IMG/VR virus record: IMGVR_UViG_3300047322_000252
Span: 1-64,000 of that record
Source: a virus
Length of the DNA stretch: 64,000 nucleotides
Direction: 5' to 3' (one strand)
Below the pieces are notes generated by a model. That model saw only the letters and a program-made list of their open reading frames with translations, searched no databases and was not told where the DNA came from. Position numbers and translations under genes: made by a program. Positions 2,788 through 31,505 of the stretch are shown here, piece after piece. Numbering within the stretch: the first letter of the stretch is position 1; every line of letters begins with the position of its first letter.

Positions 2788-3661
2788 ATGAGCACCACCT
2801 ACCCCTGCCTCTTGCCCACCGTGCCCGCCAGCCGCTGGTACTTCAACATCACCCGCATCACCGGCACGGCCACCAAGGTCAACGAGATGAACGAGCCGGT
2901 GATCTACTGCTCAGTCGAGGCCGACAGCGTCGAGGGAGCCGAGCGTCACGCCCTGGCCTGCCTGCACCACGACTACGAGGACAACCTGGAAGGTGCCCAA
3001 GCCAGCGCCTCCCAGGCCGGTGGTGGCTACTTCGTCACCGTTCGGTTGAGGCCGTACCTGTGATGGGCGCTCCCGATCGTCGTGACCCACGCAACAACCC
3101 CGAGGACGCCTACCAGGCGTTCATGAACATGCCCAACAGCGAGTGGAACGGGCTGATCGCCAGTCTGTTCCACGGTGGCGTGCTCACCCCGGCCGAGCAG
3201 GAGGGCTTCGACCGTGCGATCAAGAACCGTGCGGCGCTGAATGGGCCGAACGGCCTAGACCCTGACGTGGTTGTTGTCAGAACGTCTGATACACTGTTGT
3301 CAGAACAACAGCGAGAGGACACCCCTGACATGGACGAGGAAGCAACCTGGATCGTCTCCATCGAGCGTCCGGACGGCACCACGTTCGTCTGGCAGGTGCA
3401 GGACATGGACCTATACGCCAGCATCGTCGGCGCCATCATCGACCTGACCGGCCACACGGCCGACGTGGTGGGTGCGTGATGGACGACACCACCGATCCCC
3501 GCTCACCTGGTGAGCGCCCCCGCAAGAACCAGTGCCAGATCAACGGCCTGGACGTGCGTGACATGGGCGACCGCCAGCTACTGCGTGAGCTACGCAAGCC
3601 CTGGGGACCCAACCTCATGGACATGATCCGAGCCGAGGCCCGGTGGCGCAACCTGGTGTGA
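2788..3661 (+). CDS. Small hypothetical genes (2788-3063; 3060-3479 with probable internal start at 3330; 3476-3661)
   Basis: Overlapping start/stop codons; internal promoter at 3247-3295 and GAGAGG RBS before ATG3330. Confidence 0.6.
3245..3306 (+). promoter_or_regulatory. Composite early promoter inside ORF 3060-3479
   Basis: CGAA..CCTA at 3247, GTTGTCAGAAC at 3273, -10 TACACT at 3290, second GTTGTCAGAAC at 3296. Confidence 0.65.
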
Positions 3662-3757
3662 ACGCTCACACCATTGACACTGACAGGCCGAATGGCCTAT
3701 GTCACTCCTGGTGGTGGCGTTGTACCCTCATGACTGAACCCTAAGAAAGGGGACTGC

Positions 3758-4381
3758 ATGAGACGACGCACCACCGTTGGGGCGATCATGTTGGTGGCGG
3801 GCTTTGGCCTCGTTGGTGGTGCTGCGTTCATGGGCACCGCTGGTGCTACTGGCAACGTGGAGCACTGCACCGATGGCAATGGGCAGGACGGGGTCAACAA
3901 CCCGCACTGCACCACGGACGACAGCACCCCGCCGTCGTCCACGCCGGACAGCACCCCACCGTCGAGCACCGTGGACAGCAGCGTGCCGGACAGCACGCCG
4001 CCCTCGTCCACGCCTCCACCCTCCGACAGTGTCCCCCCGCCCGACTCGTCGGTGCCGCCGCCTGACAGCAGCGTGCCACCGCCTGACTCATCGGTCCCGC
4101 CCACCACGCCGCCTTCGGTGGTGGACACCACGGTGCCCCCCAGCATCGTGACGACCGTGCCCCCGAGCGTGGTGACCACGCCAGCGCCTACCCCCACCAC
4201 GGCGCCAGCACCGGACACCACGCCCGCCCCGGCTGCCCCAACGACCCCGCCCGGATCGTTGCCCAGCACCGGCTCCACCACCCTCCCCCTCCTGCTTGGC
4301 TCCCTTGGCGCCCTGTTGGCCGGTGGTGGACTGATCGTCCTGACCAGGCGGAATGAGGTCGGGACAGCGCTCGCAGCGTAG
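3758..4381 (+). CDS. Secreted Pro/Ser/Thr-rich protein with LPXTG-type sorting signal
   Basis: N-terminal signal peptide; PDS(S/T)(V/T)PP repeats; LPSTG, hydrophobic helix and RR tail. Confidence 0.85.
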   Translation: MRRRTTVGAIMLVAGFGLVGGAAFMGTAGATGNVEHCTDGNGQDGVNNPHCTTDDSTPPSSTPDSTPPSSTVDSSVPDSTPPSSTPPPSDSVPPPDSSVPPPDSSVPPPDSSVPPTTPPSVVDTTVPPSIVTTVPPSVVTTPAPTPTTAPAPDTTPAPAAPTTPPGSLPSTGSTTLPLLLGSLGALLAGGGLIVLTRRNEVGTALAA

Positions 4382-4407
4382 GCGGATCGCTCTGCGAGCA
4401 ACACACG

Positions 4408-4441
4408 GCGCCCCTGGTCACAGCGACCAGGGGCGCTTTGT
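4408..4441 (+). terminator. Intrinsic terminator
   Basis: 12-bp stem GCGCCCCTGGTC/GACCAGGGGCGC followed by TTTGT. Confidence 0.8.
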
Positions 4442-4447
4442 AATATA

Positions 4448-4499
4448 GTCCGAATGACCTACGAAATCCGGTTGTGTTCTGACAACAGTTCGCTATACT
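4448..4499 (+). promoter_or_regulatory. Composite early promoter P2
   Basis: CGAA..CCTA at 4451, GTTCTGACAAC at 4476, -10 TATACT at 4494. Confidence 0.8.
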
Positions 4500-4526
4500 G
4501 ATCCTTGTAAGCAACGCAGCACCTTG

Positions 4527-4774
4527 ACAACTGAGCCGGGACCCACGAAGCACCATGCAAGTACCCCGATGAAAGCGCCCTGACGGTTAACGACCACGTC
4601 TGGCCCATGCGAATCAGCGCTACGGCCAGCGATCCCTGAACGAAGGCGTGTGGAGGGCGAAATCCGCCGTGAGAGAAGTGGGAGAACAGCCCGAACGAAA
4701 GCCGAGAGTATCCCCGGAGTGCGCACGATGGGGGGAGGGTAGGTGGACAAGTAGGACTGGCCCGGCTCAGTTGT
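4527..4774 (+). ncRNA. Candidate structured RNA 2 (about 250 nt, raiA-motif-like words)
   Basis: Perfect 14-bp closing stem ACAACTGAGCCGGG/CCCGGCTCAGTTGT; internal stems CTGGCC/GGCCAG and CGCCCT/AGGGCG; purine-rich linkers; no credible ORF; directly after P2. Confidence 0.75.
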
Positions 4775-4809
4775 GAGAGTGTTGTGAGAACCTGAAAGGA
4801 CCCTGACCC

Positions 4810-5556
4810 ATGAGCAATCCCAAGAACCTGCAAGAACTGGCCGACAGCCTGGCCGAGCAAGCCCGCACCATTCGCCAGTCTGGTCCTGGCACCTACGCCG
4901 ACAGCTTCCAGCGGGCGGGCTATGCCGATGCCCTGTTGGACACGAGGGCCACGGTCCTCGCCATGATCGCTGAGCAGCGGCCCAAGGGTCTGCACAAGGC
5001 CAGCCCTGATCCCGACTACGCCCACCTGTGCATCCATTGCATGCTGAACATCAAGCACCTGCCTGCGGGCCAGGGCTGGGTCCACGAGGGCACCGGCATG
5101 GTGGTCGGTGACGGTCCTGCTGACGTGTGCCCCGAGTGTGACTGCCCGATTGACGACCATCACGAGGCCTGTTCACGCCTCATCGGTGGCGACGAGGTCA
5201 ACAACGCCAGCCCTGCCGTGGTGGCTGCCATGAACGAGGCCCTGGTGCGCTACCAGTACCAGGTGCTGGTCGATGGCACGCCCATGCAGCACGGCCCGTT
5301 CGACCCCACGAGTGCCCACCACCCACGCAGCGCTGCTGCTACGTACCAGGAAATCAACCCCGAGGCCACGGTGGTCATCCAGTACCGGGACAACGAGGGC
5401 GATGGCGTGTGGACCACCAATGAGCCGAAAGGCTCAGTTCTGATGCACTGCCACGATCCTCGTCACGATGAGCCGTGCCCCTTGCCTTGTGCTGCGTGCG
5501 AGGACGAGTGCGACCCGGCCTTCGCACGCAATGAGCCGAATGGCCTACCGGCCTGA
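4810..5556 (+). CDS. Hypothetical multi-module Cys/His-rich protein
   Basis: GAAAGGA RBS; several CxxC/H motifs. Confidence 0.75.
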   Translation: MSNPKNLQELADSLAEQARTIRQSGPGTYADSFQRAGYADALLDTRATVLAMIAEQRPKGLHKASPDPDYAHLCIHCMLNIKHLPAGQGWVHEGTGMVVGDGPADVCPECDCPIDDHHEACSRLIGGDEVNNASPAVVAAMNEALVRYQYQVLVDGTPMQHGPFDPTSAHHPRSAAATYQEINPEATVVIQYRDNEGDGVWTTNEPKGSVLMHCHDPRHDEPCPLPCAACEDECDPAFARNEPNGLPA

Positions 5557-5593
5557 CGTGTGTTGTGACAACACATCAGGTACACTGACTCCC
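5535..5593 (+). promoter_or_regulatory. Composite early promoter P3 (leaderless)
   Basis: CGAA..CCTA at 5537, GTTGTGACAAC at 5562, -10 TACACT at 5581, ATG at 5594. Confidence 0.78.
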
Positions 5594-6991
5594 ATGAGCA
5601 GATACACCACCCCTGGCCCCTGGTCCTGCATCAAGCGGACCAACATCACCGGCTTCTACGGCTCCCGCATCGGCGCCGTCCAGATCGAGACAGGCCCCCT
5701 CGTGGATGGTCGCAACGGCCAGCGCTACGAGGATGGCGCCCACAAGGTCACCGTCACCAAGAGGCCCGAGGCCTGCACTGGTGGCTGGCCCCGAGGCAAG
5801 ACGTTCAAGGGCGAGACGGCCTGGTCCAGCGCTGAGCGCTACCGGGACGACTGCGTCCACATGATGGAGAAGTACGCACGAGAGGAAGGCCTGTGATGGC
5901 CCGCACACCCCGCCATAGCCCCTACGACCCGCAGTTCGCTGACAAGCCCGACCACGTGAGCGACAACACCTTCGACCTGGTCGGCAACATCATCGCCTTC
6001 GAGAATGGCGAACTGGACGAGGACGAGTGCATCGCTTTCTTCCAGCACCTGGTCAACACTGGCCTGGCCTGGTCCCTGCAAGGCACCTACGGCCGCACGG
6101 CCATGGCCCTGATCGAGGCCGGGCTGGTGACACGATGACCACGCCCTGGCAAGACGATCGCACGGTCGGCACCATCAACATCGGCCATGTCAATGTCAGT
6201 GACCTGCTGAGCAAGCTGGTCGAGTTCTCGCTGCGCTACGGCGCCGACCTGGACCTGTACATCGATGGCAACAACCTGGTCATCTTCGCCCCCCGGGGCG
6301 CCGCCACTCAGCCCCTCCCTTTGGAGGAACGCCGAGAGGTCGGCATGCACTGGCTGGCTGACATTCTTGGAAGGATCACACGATGAGCACCTTGGAGGTC
6401 CACCACGACGAGGAAGTGGGCACCGTGCTGGTGGTCCAGCGCTACCAGCGTGCCCGAGTCGCATACCAGTGTGATGCGTGCATCACAGGCGGTCCCATCG
6501 TCAAGGGTGAGGTCTACCGCTACGTTTGGAGCATGTTGGAGGGCGACAGCCTGGTCCAGCGGTTCCACGCCGGGTGCGTCTAGTGCCCCGCCTGCGCCTC
6601 TTGGAGCCTCTTGGAGCGCCTTTGGAGCTATCGGCGCCCCGGAGGCCCAAGCTGGCCCAGGTGGCCGCTCAGTGCCCCTTCTGCCGTGGTGCTGGCTACC
6701 TGTACGGCCGAGTGCTGTGCCCCACGTGCGAGGGCGCTGGTGTCGCCTAAGACGTCCAGCGGGTGGTTCGGCCTGGCGTGCTTCAACGCCCTGAGCCACG
6801 AGCAGCAGCGCATGCTGATCGAGGACGGCGTGCTGCCGTTCGGCCGCAAGTGGCCCGAGGGCGCCGGGTGCGAGCGTGGTGCGAGCGTGGCGATCGAGGT
6901 CGAGGGCGACGAGGCACCAGGGCCACGCTTCTACTGCGTGCCGTGCGGCATCGAGTACCTGCGCACCGTCACCATTGACACTGACACGTGA
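5594..6991 (+). CDS. Operon of six small genes (5594-5896, 5893-6138, 6135-6386, 6383-6583, 6583-6750 with CxxCxGxG Zn finger, 6740-6991)
   Basis: Chain of overlapping ORFs; 5893-6138 carries a common phage motif (ENGEL..LVNTGLAWSLQGTYGR). Confidence 0.7.
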
Positions 6992-7040: not shown

Positions 7041-7100
7041 GTCCGAAATACCTACGAGTATGACGACTGTTCTGACAACAACGGGACTAGACTCGCTGGT
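7041..7100 (+). promoter_or_regulatory. Composite early promoter P4 (leaderless)
   Basis: CGAA..CCTA at 7044, GTTCTGACAAC at 7069, -10 TAGACT at 7088, ATG at 7101. Confidence 0.78.
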
Positions 7101-7883: not shown

Positions 7884-7944
7884 CAGGGATAGGGCCGAAA
7901 GGCCCATCCCTGAGTGTGTGTTCTGACAACACGCCCGATAGACT
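7884..7944 (+). promoter_or_regulatory. Hairpin overlapping composite early promoter P5
   Basis: CAGGGAT-A-GGGCC GAAA GGCCC-ATCCCTG hairpin; CGAA at 7896, GTTCTGACAAC at 7920, -10 TAGACT at 7939. Confidence 0.7.
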
Positions 7945-7982
7945 GACGCTTGCCAGTCACCCACCGAGAGGAACCCCTGACC

Positions 7983-9463: not shown

Positions 9464-9549
9464 TTACGTGTGTGAATCTCGTCACACTAGGCCACAATAC
9501 CTAGTGTTCTGACAACAGAAAGGGCCTCTGACCAGCTATTATGTCTCTC

Positions 9550-11100: not shown

Positions 11101-11174
11101 TGGCCTCATCCCTACAGCGTGCATGAGCACGCCACCCCATTGACACTGACACACTCTCACCCCACTACCCCCAC

Positions 11175-11210
11175 GAGCACCCGCCCCCACCAGGGCGGGT
11201 GCTCTCTGTT
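11175..11210 (+). terminator. Intrinsic terminator closing the early region
   Basis: 12-bp stem GAGCACCCGCCC/GGGCGGGTGCTC followed by TCTGTT. Confidence 0.75.
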
Positions 11211-11739
11211 GTGACACCAGGCGAGCCTAATCGGCGCCCATGGGATGCCCACGGCATGAGGCAGAGTGATCAAGTGCATGCCCTGTCTCACCGTCACCCC
11301 CTCCCCTACTGCCTAGCTATGTCAGGCAGTGACACATGCCACACCCCTCCCACCCTAGTGAGCGTGGCGTAGCCACTCTCCCCTCTGCCTGTCGTGCCTG
11401 CTCATGCCCCTATGGGCATGACCTAGATCAACCCTGGCCCCGGTTGTCAAGGCAGTTGTGACAACAGCCTGCCTTGACATACGCCCTCACCTGTGAAACA
11501 CCAGGTCACAGACCTGTTGTGATAACTGTCACACCACATGTGCCTCATGGCACATGTGTTGACAACATGCCCTGACCTGCGGCTACGCCGCCTGTCAAGG
11601 GCTGTGAATCATGTCACACCCCTGTGACATTAATCACCCTGACCGGGCTGCGCCCGGGCTAGGACTCCCATGTGCAAGGGGGGTTTCCCGGGGGACTCGT
11701 GTAGTGGTATATGCACTCGTGTGTGGTACAATGTGGTGC
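11211..11739. other. Long palindrome-rich non-coding control region
   Basis: No credible ORF; inverted repeats at 11445-11479, 11535-11558, 11611-11630; clustered GTTGTGACAAC-type boxes. Confidence 0.65.
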
Positions 11740-31336: not shown

Positions 31337-31410
31337 CGGGGTGTAGATCAGTTGGTTAGATCGCAGGTCTGGGGGACCTGAGGGCGTGGGTTCGAGTCCC
31401 ACCACCCCGA
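31337..31410 (+). tRNA. tRNA-Pro(GGG), CCA not encoded
   Basis: Full cloverleaf: CGGGGTG/CACCCCG, GATC/GATC, CAGGT-CTGGGGG-ACCTG, GTGGG-TTCGAGT-CCCAC. Confidence 0.93.
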
Positions 31411-31431: not shown

Positions 31432-31505
31432 GGGGCCATAGCTCAGCCAGGTAGAGCGCCGCCATGGCATGGCGGATGTCAGGGGTTCAACTCCCCTTGG
31501 CTCCA
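31432..31505 (+). tRNA. tRNA-Ala(GGC), CCA not encoded
   Basis: Full cloverleaf: GGGGCCA/TGGCTCC with G3-U70, GCTC/GAGC, CCGCC-ATGGCAT-GGCGG, AGGGG-TTCAACT-CCCCT. Confidence 0.95.

Follow-up and report, generated by a model that had tools for sequence, protein, structure and literature searches.

Phage RNAs of a new family carry a self-complementary loop, many within an rRNA-like terminal stem

The window analysed here comprises the left 64 kb (64,000 nucleotides, nt) of the 118,220-bp virus record IMGVR_UViG_3300047322_000252, which carries direct terminal repeats and has a G+C content of 64–65%. The region at 4494–4809, the whole gap from a −10 box to the next gene, is flanked by two genes of the + strand and encodes on that strand an RNA that extends from about 4507/4515 to 4786. 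Comparison with other phages strongly supports the assignment of this RNA to a new and widespread family of phage non-coding RNAs (ncRNAs), 220–410 nt long, with a conserved multi-helix structure on the + strand. Moreover, the segment from about 4507 to 4786 (+) is, on balance, probably a stand-alone RNA, predicted to be produced and excised in the style of ribosomal RNA (rRNA) and to dimerise. A sequence-only reading of the window had proposed either a divergent raiA motif RNA or a new large ncRNA, and the latter was borne out by the size of the family and by covariation.

Size and spread of the family

Two domain covariance models were used, R1 for the 5′ domain and R2 for the 3′ domain. A blastn search with 4380–4820 at distant settings returned 202 phage records, all of them cluster C mycobacteriophages. 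Two other members used as queries found solely Mycobacterium phages, with 202 records (including Myrna, 3226–3602) and 199 records, respectively. The family RNA is carried by about 200 cluster C1 mycobacteriophages and by Myrna, at a fixed genome position in cluster C. The alignment of the window with the cluster C phages consisted of long identical blocks with an insertion of some 75 nt between them, as is typical of a structured RNA. No close relative of the 118,220-bp phage was found among 50,697 phage records.

Further members were found with conserved words. The exact word CTGACGGYTAACGACCAC occurred in 38 viral contigs, and R1 matched 38/38. When the other conserved strand, GCGAYCCCTGAAYGAASG, was used as the probe, 30/30 loci were members, and the first word was exact in 25 of them and differed by a single C-to-U change in the remaining 5. 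In addition, a metagenome scan gave at least 119 stretches, with R1 matches in 67/80 among those listed. The distinct elements with both motifs numbered at least 108 in viral and metagenome contigs. The word TGGAGGGCGAAATCCGCC as a probe found four loci, two of which (L005 and L007) were outside the family. The 118-kb phage has one copy, and one element was present per locus, two tandem pairs excepted. Across the genomes of 185,579 species, the family word gave 10 matches, 9 of which were chance matches inside unrelated genes; the tenth (L048) lay in a metagenome bin, on a 126-kb contig that is identical to a viral contig and is probably the phage itself. Furthermore, R1 had a match in 0/150 other Actinomycetota genomes under stricter filters, with 21 candidates scored per genome.

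No earlier description of the RNA was found in the literature searched, whose coverage lay mostly outside subscription journals and supplements. Mycobacteriophages, kissing loops and palindromes were unmentioned in a 2026 preprint on the prokaryotic non-coding space. The cluster C locus (for instance L001:2460-2794 and L002:2402-2762) is unannotated in some GenBank records, and other records place one or two small 'hypothetical protein' open reading frames (ORFs) of 24–87 aa over the RNA, inconsistently between records; these are likely mis-annotations. A gene for tmRNA or a tRNA-like gene was observed a few hundred nt downstream of some members, on the same strand: L018:10219-10301 (-), a tmRNA with an Rfam score of 57.7 bits; L033:284-609 (-), a tmRNA called by ARAGORN only; and L029:629-712 (+), which is tRNA-like.

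It is extremely improbable that the locus is a small protein gene, read from the antisense ORFs at 4459–5163 or 4493–4750 or from the small cluster C ORFs. An antisense frame was open across the element in 15/29 members, and the hypothetical proteins annotated in some GenBank records point the same way. Against this, no open frame whatever was found in the other 14/29, the open frames varied among members, and the + frame was open in 0/29 elements. The lengths of the 29 elements modulo 3 were distributed 12/8/9 and were not kept in threes. The ORF clusters common to many loci were all antisense, overlapped the element and lay in differing frames; many records annotate nothing, and the substitutions were paired, not codon-like.

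Structure, covariation and the self-complementary loop

The five words named in the sequence-only reading were located at the claimed sites, namely TGAAAG at 4570–4575, AACGACCACGT at 4589–4599, AGAAGT at 4674–4679, CGAGAGTA at 4703–4710 and GAGGGTA at 4735–4741. AACGACCACG, CGAGAGTA and GAGGGTA lie within family-conserved blocks, and TGAAAG and AGAAGT occupy moderately conserved positions. The perfect 14-bp terminal stem was also present, with ACAACTGAGCCGGG (4527–4540) pairing with CCCGGCTCAGTTGT (4761–4774). This stem, P1, continues imperfectly; its arms at 4515–4540 and 4761–4786 (+) span 26 positions, of which 2 are mismatched and 3 are G.U pairs. The fold of the + strand had an energy of −115 kcal/mol and a z-score of −3.07, equalled by 1/100 shuffles, and the z-score of the − strand was −1.39.

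Within the terminal P1, the RNA consists of a 5′ domain, with P2–P4 around a big internal loop and a length-variable hairpin, and a 3′ domain, which is a long irregular hairpin. The 5′ domain at 4538–4688 (+) scored 118.7 bits with R1, and the model placed P2 at 4542–4546/4678–4682, P3 at 4551–4556/4669–4675, P4 at 4575–4579/4645–4649 and the variable hairpin at 4597–4605/4624–4631, all on the + strand. Two near-invariant strands face each other in the internal loop: CTGACGGTTAACGACCA on its 5′ side (4580–4596 (+); RNA CUGACGGYUAACGACCA) and ATCCCTGAACGAA on its 3′ side (4632–4644 (+); RNA AUCCCUGAAYGAA). The former was exact in 38/38 viral loci found with it. The motif CCCTGAAYGAA occurred in 33/34 aligned members, none of which had been chosen by it, and the 34th was one base off (CCCTAAATGAA). 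The 3′ domain at 4681–4761 (+) scored 79.7 bits with R2. Its helices on the + strand are P5 (4687–4692/4754–4759; 59–68% of alignment cells paired, in a mixed register), P6 (4701–4703/4742–4744; 86%) and P7 (4712–4715/4730–4733; 97%). The internal loops of this domain are purine-rich (GAGAGTAT and GGAGGGTA) and hold the previously noticed CGAGAGUA and GAGGGUA.

The structure was supported by covariation. For the 5′ domain, 34 members aligned to R1 had 91.3% of cells paired versus 27–40% when slid, both-side changes occurred in 22/28 pairs, and 0/500 shuffles reached the covariation score. For the 3′ domain, 61 distinct sequences aligned to R2 had 82–84% paired versus 28–56% when slid. Moreover, RNAalifold on an unfitted MAFFT alignment of 16 compact members gave 56 pairs, 48 of them with compensatory changes. 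In 28/35 distinct elements the terminal arms were 22–30 nt long, and their sequences differed from element to element. A covariation scan of all positions against all others returned the known helices and hints of one extra short helix.

The covariation also bears on whether the conserved entity is DNA. The long inverted repeats at the ends and the perfect palindrome in the DNA would suit a protein-binding site, such as an operator, origin or packaging signal, or the termini of a miniature mobile element, and the region lies amid repeated regulatory boxes near the left end of the genome. Such a DNA-level element is, however, very improbable. U.G pairs at three positions in 16–20 sequences work only in the RNA of the + strand, which therefore is the functional strand, and compensatory changes were found in at least 8 internal helices. 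In addition, there is no hint of mobility, as the element is single-copy and its position is constant across about 200 cluster C genomes, and a protein operator would not vary in at least 14 ways while keeping its symmetry alone.

That symmetry lies in the 14-nt loop of P7 (4716–4729), where the self-complementary word GTGCGCAC occupies 4719–4726 (+). In the family, the P7 loop was 14–16 nt long and contained a self-complementary word of 6–10 nt in every alignable member. At least 14 variants of the word were found, including GUGCGCAC of the window, GUGGCCAC, GGUGCAUC, GGUGCACC, GGUGCACU, GCUGCAGC, GCGGCCGC, GUUGCAAC, GUCCGGAC, CCGUGCACGG, GACGUC, GUGCAC, GCGCGC and AUGCAU. The four mirror pairs were 97.9% complementary in 61 distinct sequences (97.4% in the first 30), and three of the four had changed on both sides, in 16, 15 and 27 sequences. 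The adjacent central bases were GC in 33 sequences and CG in 26. A hairpin cannot pair adjacent bases, and the constraint therefore stems from a second molecule. Covariance of adjacent loop bases likewise marks the symmetric kissing loops in the solved structures of OLE and GOLLD (PMC12286853). From this covariation we infer that the P7 loop forms a symmetric kissing-loop contact of a homodimer.

The calculated energies of the self-duplexes were −4.7 to −19.3 kcal/mol, and the cross-duplexes were mostly weaker. Two near-identical RNAs, L075:4200-4279 (-) and L077:596-675 (-), carry GUGGCCAC and GUCCGGAC, respectively, which differ in the four central bases. Judged from the sequences, this is a recent switch that kept self-complementarity and would abolish cross-pairing. 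The two tandem pairs, L134:4934-5415 (-) and L156:2153-2637 (-), consist of divergent paralogues with their own P1 each, and the R1 scores were 109.5 and 53.2 bits in L134 and 119 and 44.9 bits in L156. Nevertheless, the tandem copies share a loop word within each phage, GCGGCCGC in L134 and GUGCGCAC in L156. Furthermore, the Myrna-like members L019, L024 and L025 (for example L025:3163-3213) possess one more hairpin, whose loop is also self-complementary (GUCAUGAC). With two self-pairing loops, these Myrna-like RNAs might form assemblies beyond the dimer.

Terminal stem, promoter and proposed production

The 5′ flank GCACCTTGACAACTGA was found at 4519–4534, and its proposed likeness to the entry of an rRNA leader was supported. 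It was 15/16 identical to one actinobacterial 16S leader (L058), and CCTTGACAACTGA of the window was identical to another (L061). The boxA-like word in question, TTGACAACT, lies at 4524–4532 in the 5′ arm of P1. For comparison, four rRNA operons from Actinomycetota genomes were used. YYTGA[G/C/A]AACT was present upstream of 16S and in the 16S–23S spacer in 4/4 operons, and the word formed the 5′ strand of the pre-16S stalk in 4/4. The leader copy and the spacer just after 16S gave a duplex of 24–33 bp, the processing stalk, in all four. The G of UUGA stands opposite a G in the rRNA stalks and in P1 of the window alike (G4526 opposite G4775). In Escherichia coli and Bacillus subtilis, boxA before 16S and 23S binds NusB, and the consensus ends are UUUAACA and UUUGAAA (PMC13753749).

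Thirteen boxA-like words occur in the window, and just that of P1 starts a long-range stem, with a score of 50 versus at most 29 for the other 12. Among 108 members, the word was present in the P1 region of 37 in its strict form and of 12 more in a looser form, against a background of 0.009 per scanned window. The boxA word thus marks part of the family, namely a large subset to which the RNA of the window belongs. With UUGACAACU in its 5′ strand and the G.G mismatch, P1 has the likeness of a host pre-16S processing stalk, and as a mechanism it would act as a copy of that stalk. The likeness differs in extent, as the enclosed RNA is about 220 nt versus 1.5 kb, is phage-encoded, and about half of the family stalks are without the word. 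In addition, the core was compared with 16S and the 5′ part of 23S, and seven conserved motifs matched no better than shuffled motifs.

A second unit was observed 31 nt past a family member, at L039:10244-10480 (-), composed of TTGACAACCGAAG, 234 nt and CTTCGGTTGTCAA. Its sequence is unrelated to the family; neither R1 nor R2 matched it, nor did any Rfam model at E ≤ 1, and it has the same frame of boxA word and terminal stem. Judging from this second, unrelated RNA, the boxA-stalk cassette may be modular.

A predicted promoter lies upstream at 4473–4499 (+), with the repeated box TGTGTTCTGACAACA at 4473–4487 and the −10 element TATACT at 4494–4499. The arrangement of TGTGTTCTGACAACA, 6–7 nt and TAnAcT has copies at 1111, 4473, 5559, 7066 and 7917; the copy at 9503 has a longer spacer, and that at 11205 is the box alone. 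At 1111, 5559 and 7066, an ATG follows the −10 element by 7–8 nt, giving leaderless mRNAs. The spacing of these leaderless copies places the transcription start near 4507, some 8 nt upstream of the extended P1. The RNA accordingly appears to be served by a promoter of its own, which would belong to a group of at least six in the left end of the phage, if these boxes function as predicted. The sequence TAnnnT was seen by eye 10–25 nt before P1 in many other members and is too short for significance alone. The other promoter-family stretches of the left end are 1111–1140, 5559–5590, 7066–7095, 7917–7945, 9503–9545 and 11205–11219, and a longer upstream part (CGAAnGACCTAC...) is common to four of the copies.

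The following course of production is proposed. Transcription would start about 8 nt before P1 from the RNA's own promoter, and the nascent 5′ strand of P1 would recruit NusB–S10 and the rRNA antitermination/chaperone complex. This Nus complex would shield the long untranslated transcript from Rho and help the distant strands to pair. RNase III would then cut the stalk of about 26 bp, leaving a stable RNA of about 250 nt and freeing the downstream mRNA. The Nus and RNase III steps are taken from the established knowledge of rRNA operons. The suggestion that RNase III would excise the RNA from an early transcript is reasonable, given the promoter and the 26-bp mimic of the stalk. The GUGCGCAC loop would pair with its counterpart in a second molecule to give a symmetric homodimer, and the variation of the loop word between phages would keep the dimers phage-specific. 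In early infection, the mature dimer might serve in trans as a decoy or scaffold that engages a host factor by way of CUGACGGYUAACGACCA and CCCUGAAYGAA.

An alternative is that the element is a cis-acting leader which releases no free RNA, such as a nut- or put-like processive boxA antiterminator, or a riboswitch-like or stabilising 5′ untranslated region of the downstream early genes. A gene begins 24 nt past P1 in the window and 20–50 nt past it in most loci, the boxA-like word stands at the very 5′ end, and the sister promoters drive leaderless mRNAs, so that a 300-nt leader would be a deliberate addition. We nevertheless consider a cis-acting leader rather unlikely. The downstream genes are unrelated among distant loci, with no flanking protein common to them, and a terminator-like hairpin, a tRNA or a tmRNA instead of a gene is found 3′ of some members; in L042 and L040, a terminator-like hairpin and T run were recognised by eye. 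Moreover, boxA alone would suffice for such a leader, yet a core of about 200 nt is conserved with near-invariant strands, and the boxA-like word is absent from half of the family. The covarying self-complementary loop, common to tandem paralogues, argues for contacts between molecules.

Several points weigh against a stand-alone, rRNA-like and dimerising RNA. No terminator was found between P1 and the gene 20–50 nt on, in the window and in most loci, and a near downstream gene without a terminator also fits a cis-acting leader. The boxA-like word was missing in 59/108 members and is therefore inessential to the core function. P5 was paired in just 59–68% of cells in the alignments, and the all-against-all covariation scan gave no convincing inter-domain pseudoknot. 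The covariation alignments were model-fitted, which favours structure, although the palindrome columns lie outside the model; the structure is supported despite this, since the slid controls and the unfitted MAFFT/RNAalifold analysis agree. In addition, the probes that gathered the members were exact words of the two best-conserved strands, so that members divergent there were missed. The invariance of these strands is for the same reason partly by construction, and the cross-check with GCGAYCCCTGAAYGAASG limits this bias.

A broader and tentative proposal, which we hold to be possible rather than likely, is that actinobacterial phages pass an RNA off as rRNA. Recruitment by the boxA stalk and cleavage by RNase III would yield a symmetric RNA-only dimer with a phage-specific loop 'address'. 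The dimer might serve as a decoy that titrates factors of rRNA transcription or maturation and so redirects or shuts down host ribosome synthesis, or it might be an RNA-only quaternary machine. If this were true, a phage would be copying the host rRNA leader and stalk for a non-ribosomal RNA, and the RNA would provide a direct handle on the use of Nus factors and RNase III in actinobacteria. The covarying palindrome makes a testable prediction of RNA–RNA self-recognition with switchable specificity.

Comparison with known RNAs and neighbouring features

The raiA motif RNA was the known family proposed for the locus. The raiA model (RF03072; gathering score 101.3 bits) found nothing at E ≤ 10 either in region 4350–4900 or across the 118-kb phage; in 11 other members, searched at E ≤ 1, it likewise had no match. 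As a positive control, the same model matched in 38/101 Actinomycetota genomes with 112–172 bits, a tally that includes the unpublished G089. Conversely, R1 and R2 matched nothing inside 10 actinobacterial raiA RNAs. The proposed raiA words GAAACGACCCACGUAAG, UUGAAAG (5/10) and GGAGAAG do occur in real raiA RNAs; the likeness stood at the level of words and not as homology.

The raiA motif RNA has a P1 with conserved GU and GGU bulges and a core of P3a–P3b, P4, PK1 and PK2 (PMC12968392). The family RNA shares with raiA the size, a closing P1, the Actinomycetota setting and a few short words, and the similar order of the words, the similar size and the closing P1 also speak for a divergent raiA motif RNA (PMC12968392). 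However, the two differ in their genomic setting and architecture, and the models mismatch both ways. The P1 of the window is perfect over 14 bp without bulges, and the consensus has no four-way junction with PK1 and PK2. The model fails in both directions though it works in the phylum, so that the link is refuted at the level of these tools; raiA is chromosomal, whereas the family was present in 0/150 other Actinomycetota genomes. A divergent raiA motif RNA is thus scarcely credible.

None of the 4227 families of Rfam 15 was found in the region, and at gathering thresholds the window contained two tRNAs only. At E ≤ 10, the matches in 4350–4900 were noise only, the best being an archaeal snoRNA model with 18.9 bits, and the 11 other members had nothing relevant in Rfam at E ≤ 1. 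ROOL (RF03087) was likewise without a match anywhere in the phage at E ≤ 10; for GOLLD, the negative is that of the Rfam scan and presumes that the library contains a GOLLD model. Group I intron likeness of CUGACGG...ACCACG had no Rfam support, and the terminal stem, which joins the ends, does not fit it. Bacterial Y RNAs (YrlA-like) lie beside a Ro60/TROVE gene and have a tRNA-like domain (PMC4201824). A Y RNA was rejected, as the 118-kb phage had no TROVE domain, the region had no Rfam match, and no tRNA-like call was obtained in any element of the family.

ROOL, GOLLD and OLE are ornate RNAs that form RNA-only homo-oligomers (PMC12286853). The family RNA resembles them in being large, structured and of unknown function, ROOL and GOLLD being phage- or prophage-borne, and in the covariance of adjacent loop bases. 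It differs in having no sequence or model similarity, and its oligomers are only predicted. Moreover, it is smaller (220–410 nt), comes from high-GC phages, and combines an rRNA-like stalk with one main self-pairing loop, or two in the Myrna-like members. The family adds a large and well-supported class to the few ornate phage RNAs of unknown function. In contrast to ROOL and GOLLD, it occurs in about 200 cultured and genetically tractable phages that grow on Mycobacterium smegmatis, a laboratory strain.

The rRNA-type features also recall other systems. The stalk likeness to rRNA comprises YYUGA[C/G/A]AACU in the 5′ strand of a closing stem of 24–33 bp, the G.G mismatch and the position directly after a promoter. 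In lambda, an RNase III site adjoins nutL. An early phage transcript opening with an rRNA-type boxA is likewise common to both, but the lambda leader is short, needs the N protein and is without a conserved 200-nt core or a self-pairing loop. In the lambda nut/N leader, the boxA of the early phage transcript is reported to be borrowed from the host rRNA system (PMC2724277). The loop–loop pairing of RNA copies can further be compared with two unrelated cases. At retroviral dimer initiation sites and in the phi29 pRNA, copies of an RNA pair through loops whose words vary among lineages and stay complementary. These RNAs have genome-packaging roles, and nothing links the family RNA to packaging.

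Around the element, the product of the upstream gene at 3758–4381 (+) is 207 aa long, has proline/threonine-rich repeats and bears an LPXTG cell-wall anchor (Pfam Gram_pos_anchor, 20.2 bits). Such a gene is odd cargo for a phage and suggests a Gram-positive host. Its 3′ side has a hairpin at 4407–4436 (+) with G+C-rich arms of 13/12 nt and a 5-nt loop, followed by TTTGT; this is a possible candidate terminator that would end the preceding transcription unit. It was not called by the terminator scan because the T run is short, and the noise matches of cmscan traced its stem. On the other side, a ribosome-binding-like GAAAGGA at 4794–4800 (+) precedes the downstream gene at 4810–5556 (+), whose ATG at 4810 starts 24 nt past P1. 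This gene is probably co-transcribed with the RNA, and its 248-aa protein had no Pfam or PHROG match.

Two further repeats were observed in the left 12 kb. The part-palindromic, operator-like TGTGACAACAGTCAC occurs at 620–634, 1923–1937 and 11457–11637, and CCATTGACACTGACA has five copies at 1058–1076, 1970–1988, 3667–3685, 6968–6986 and 11133–11151; both are probably regulatory sites. The two tRNA genes of the window lie at 31337–31410 and 31432–31505 (+), with Rfam scores of 67.5 and 63.1 bits, respectively.

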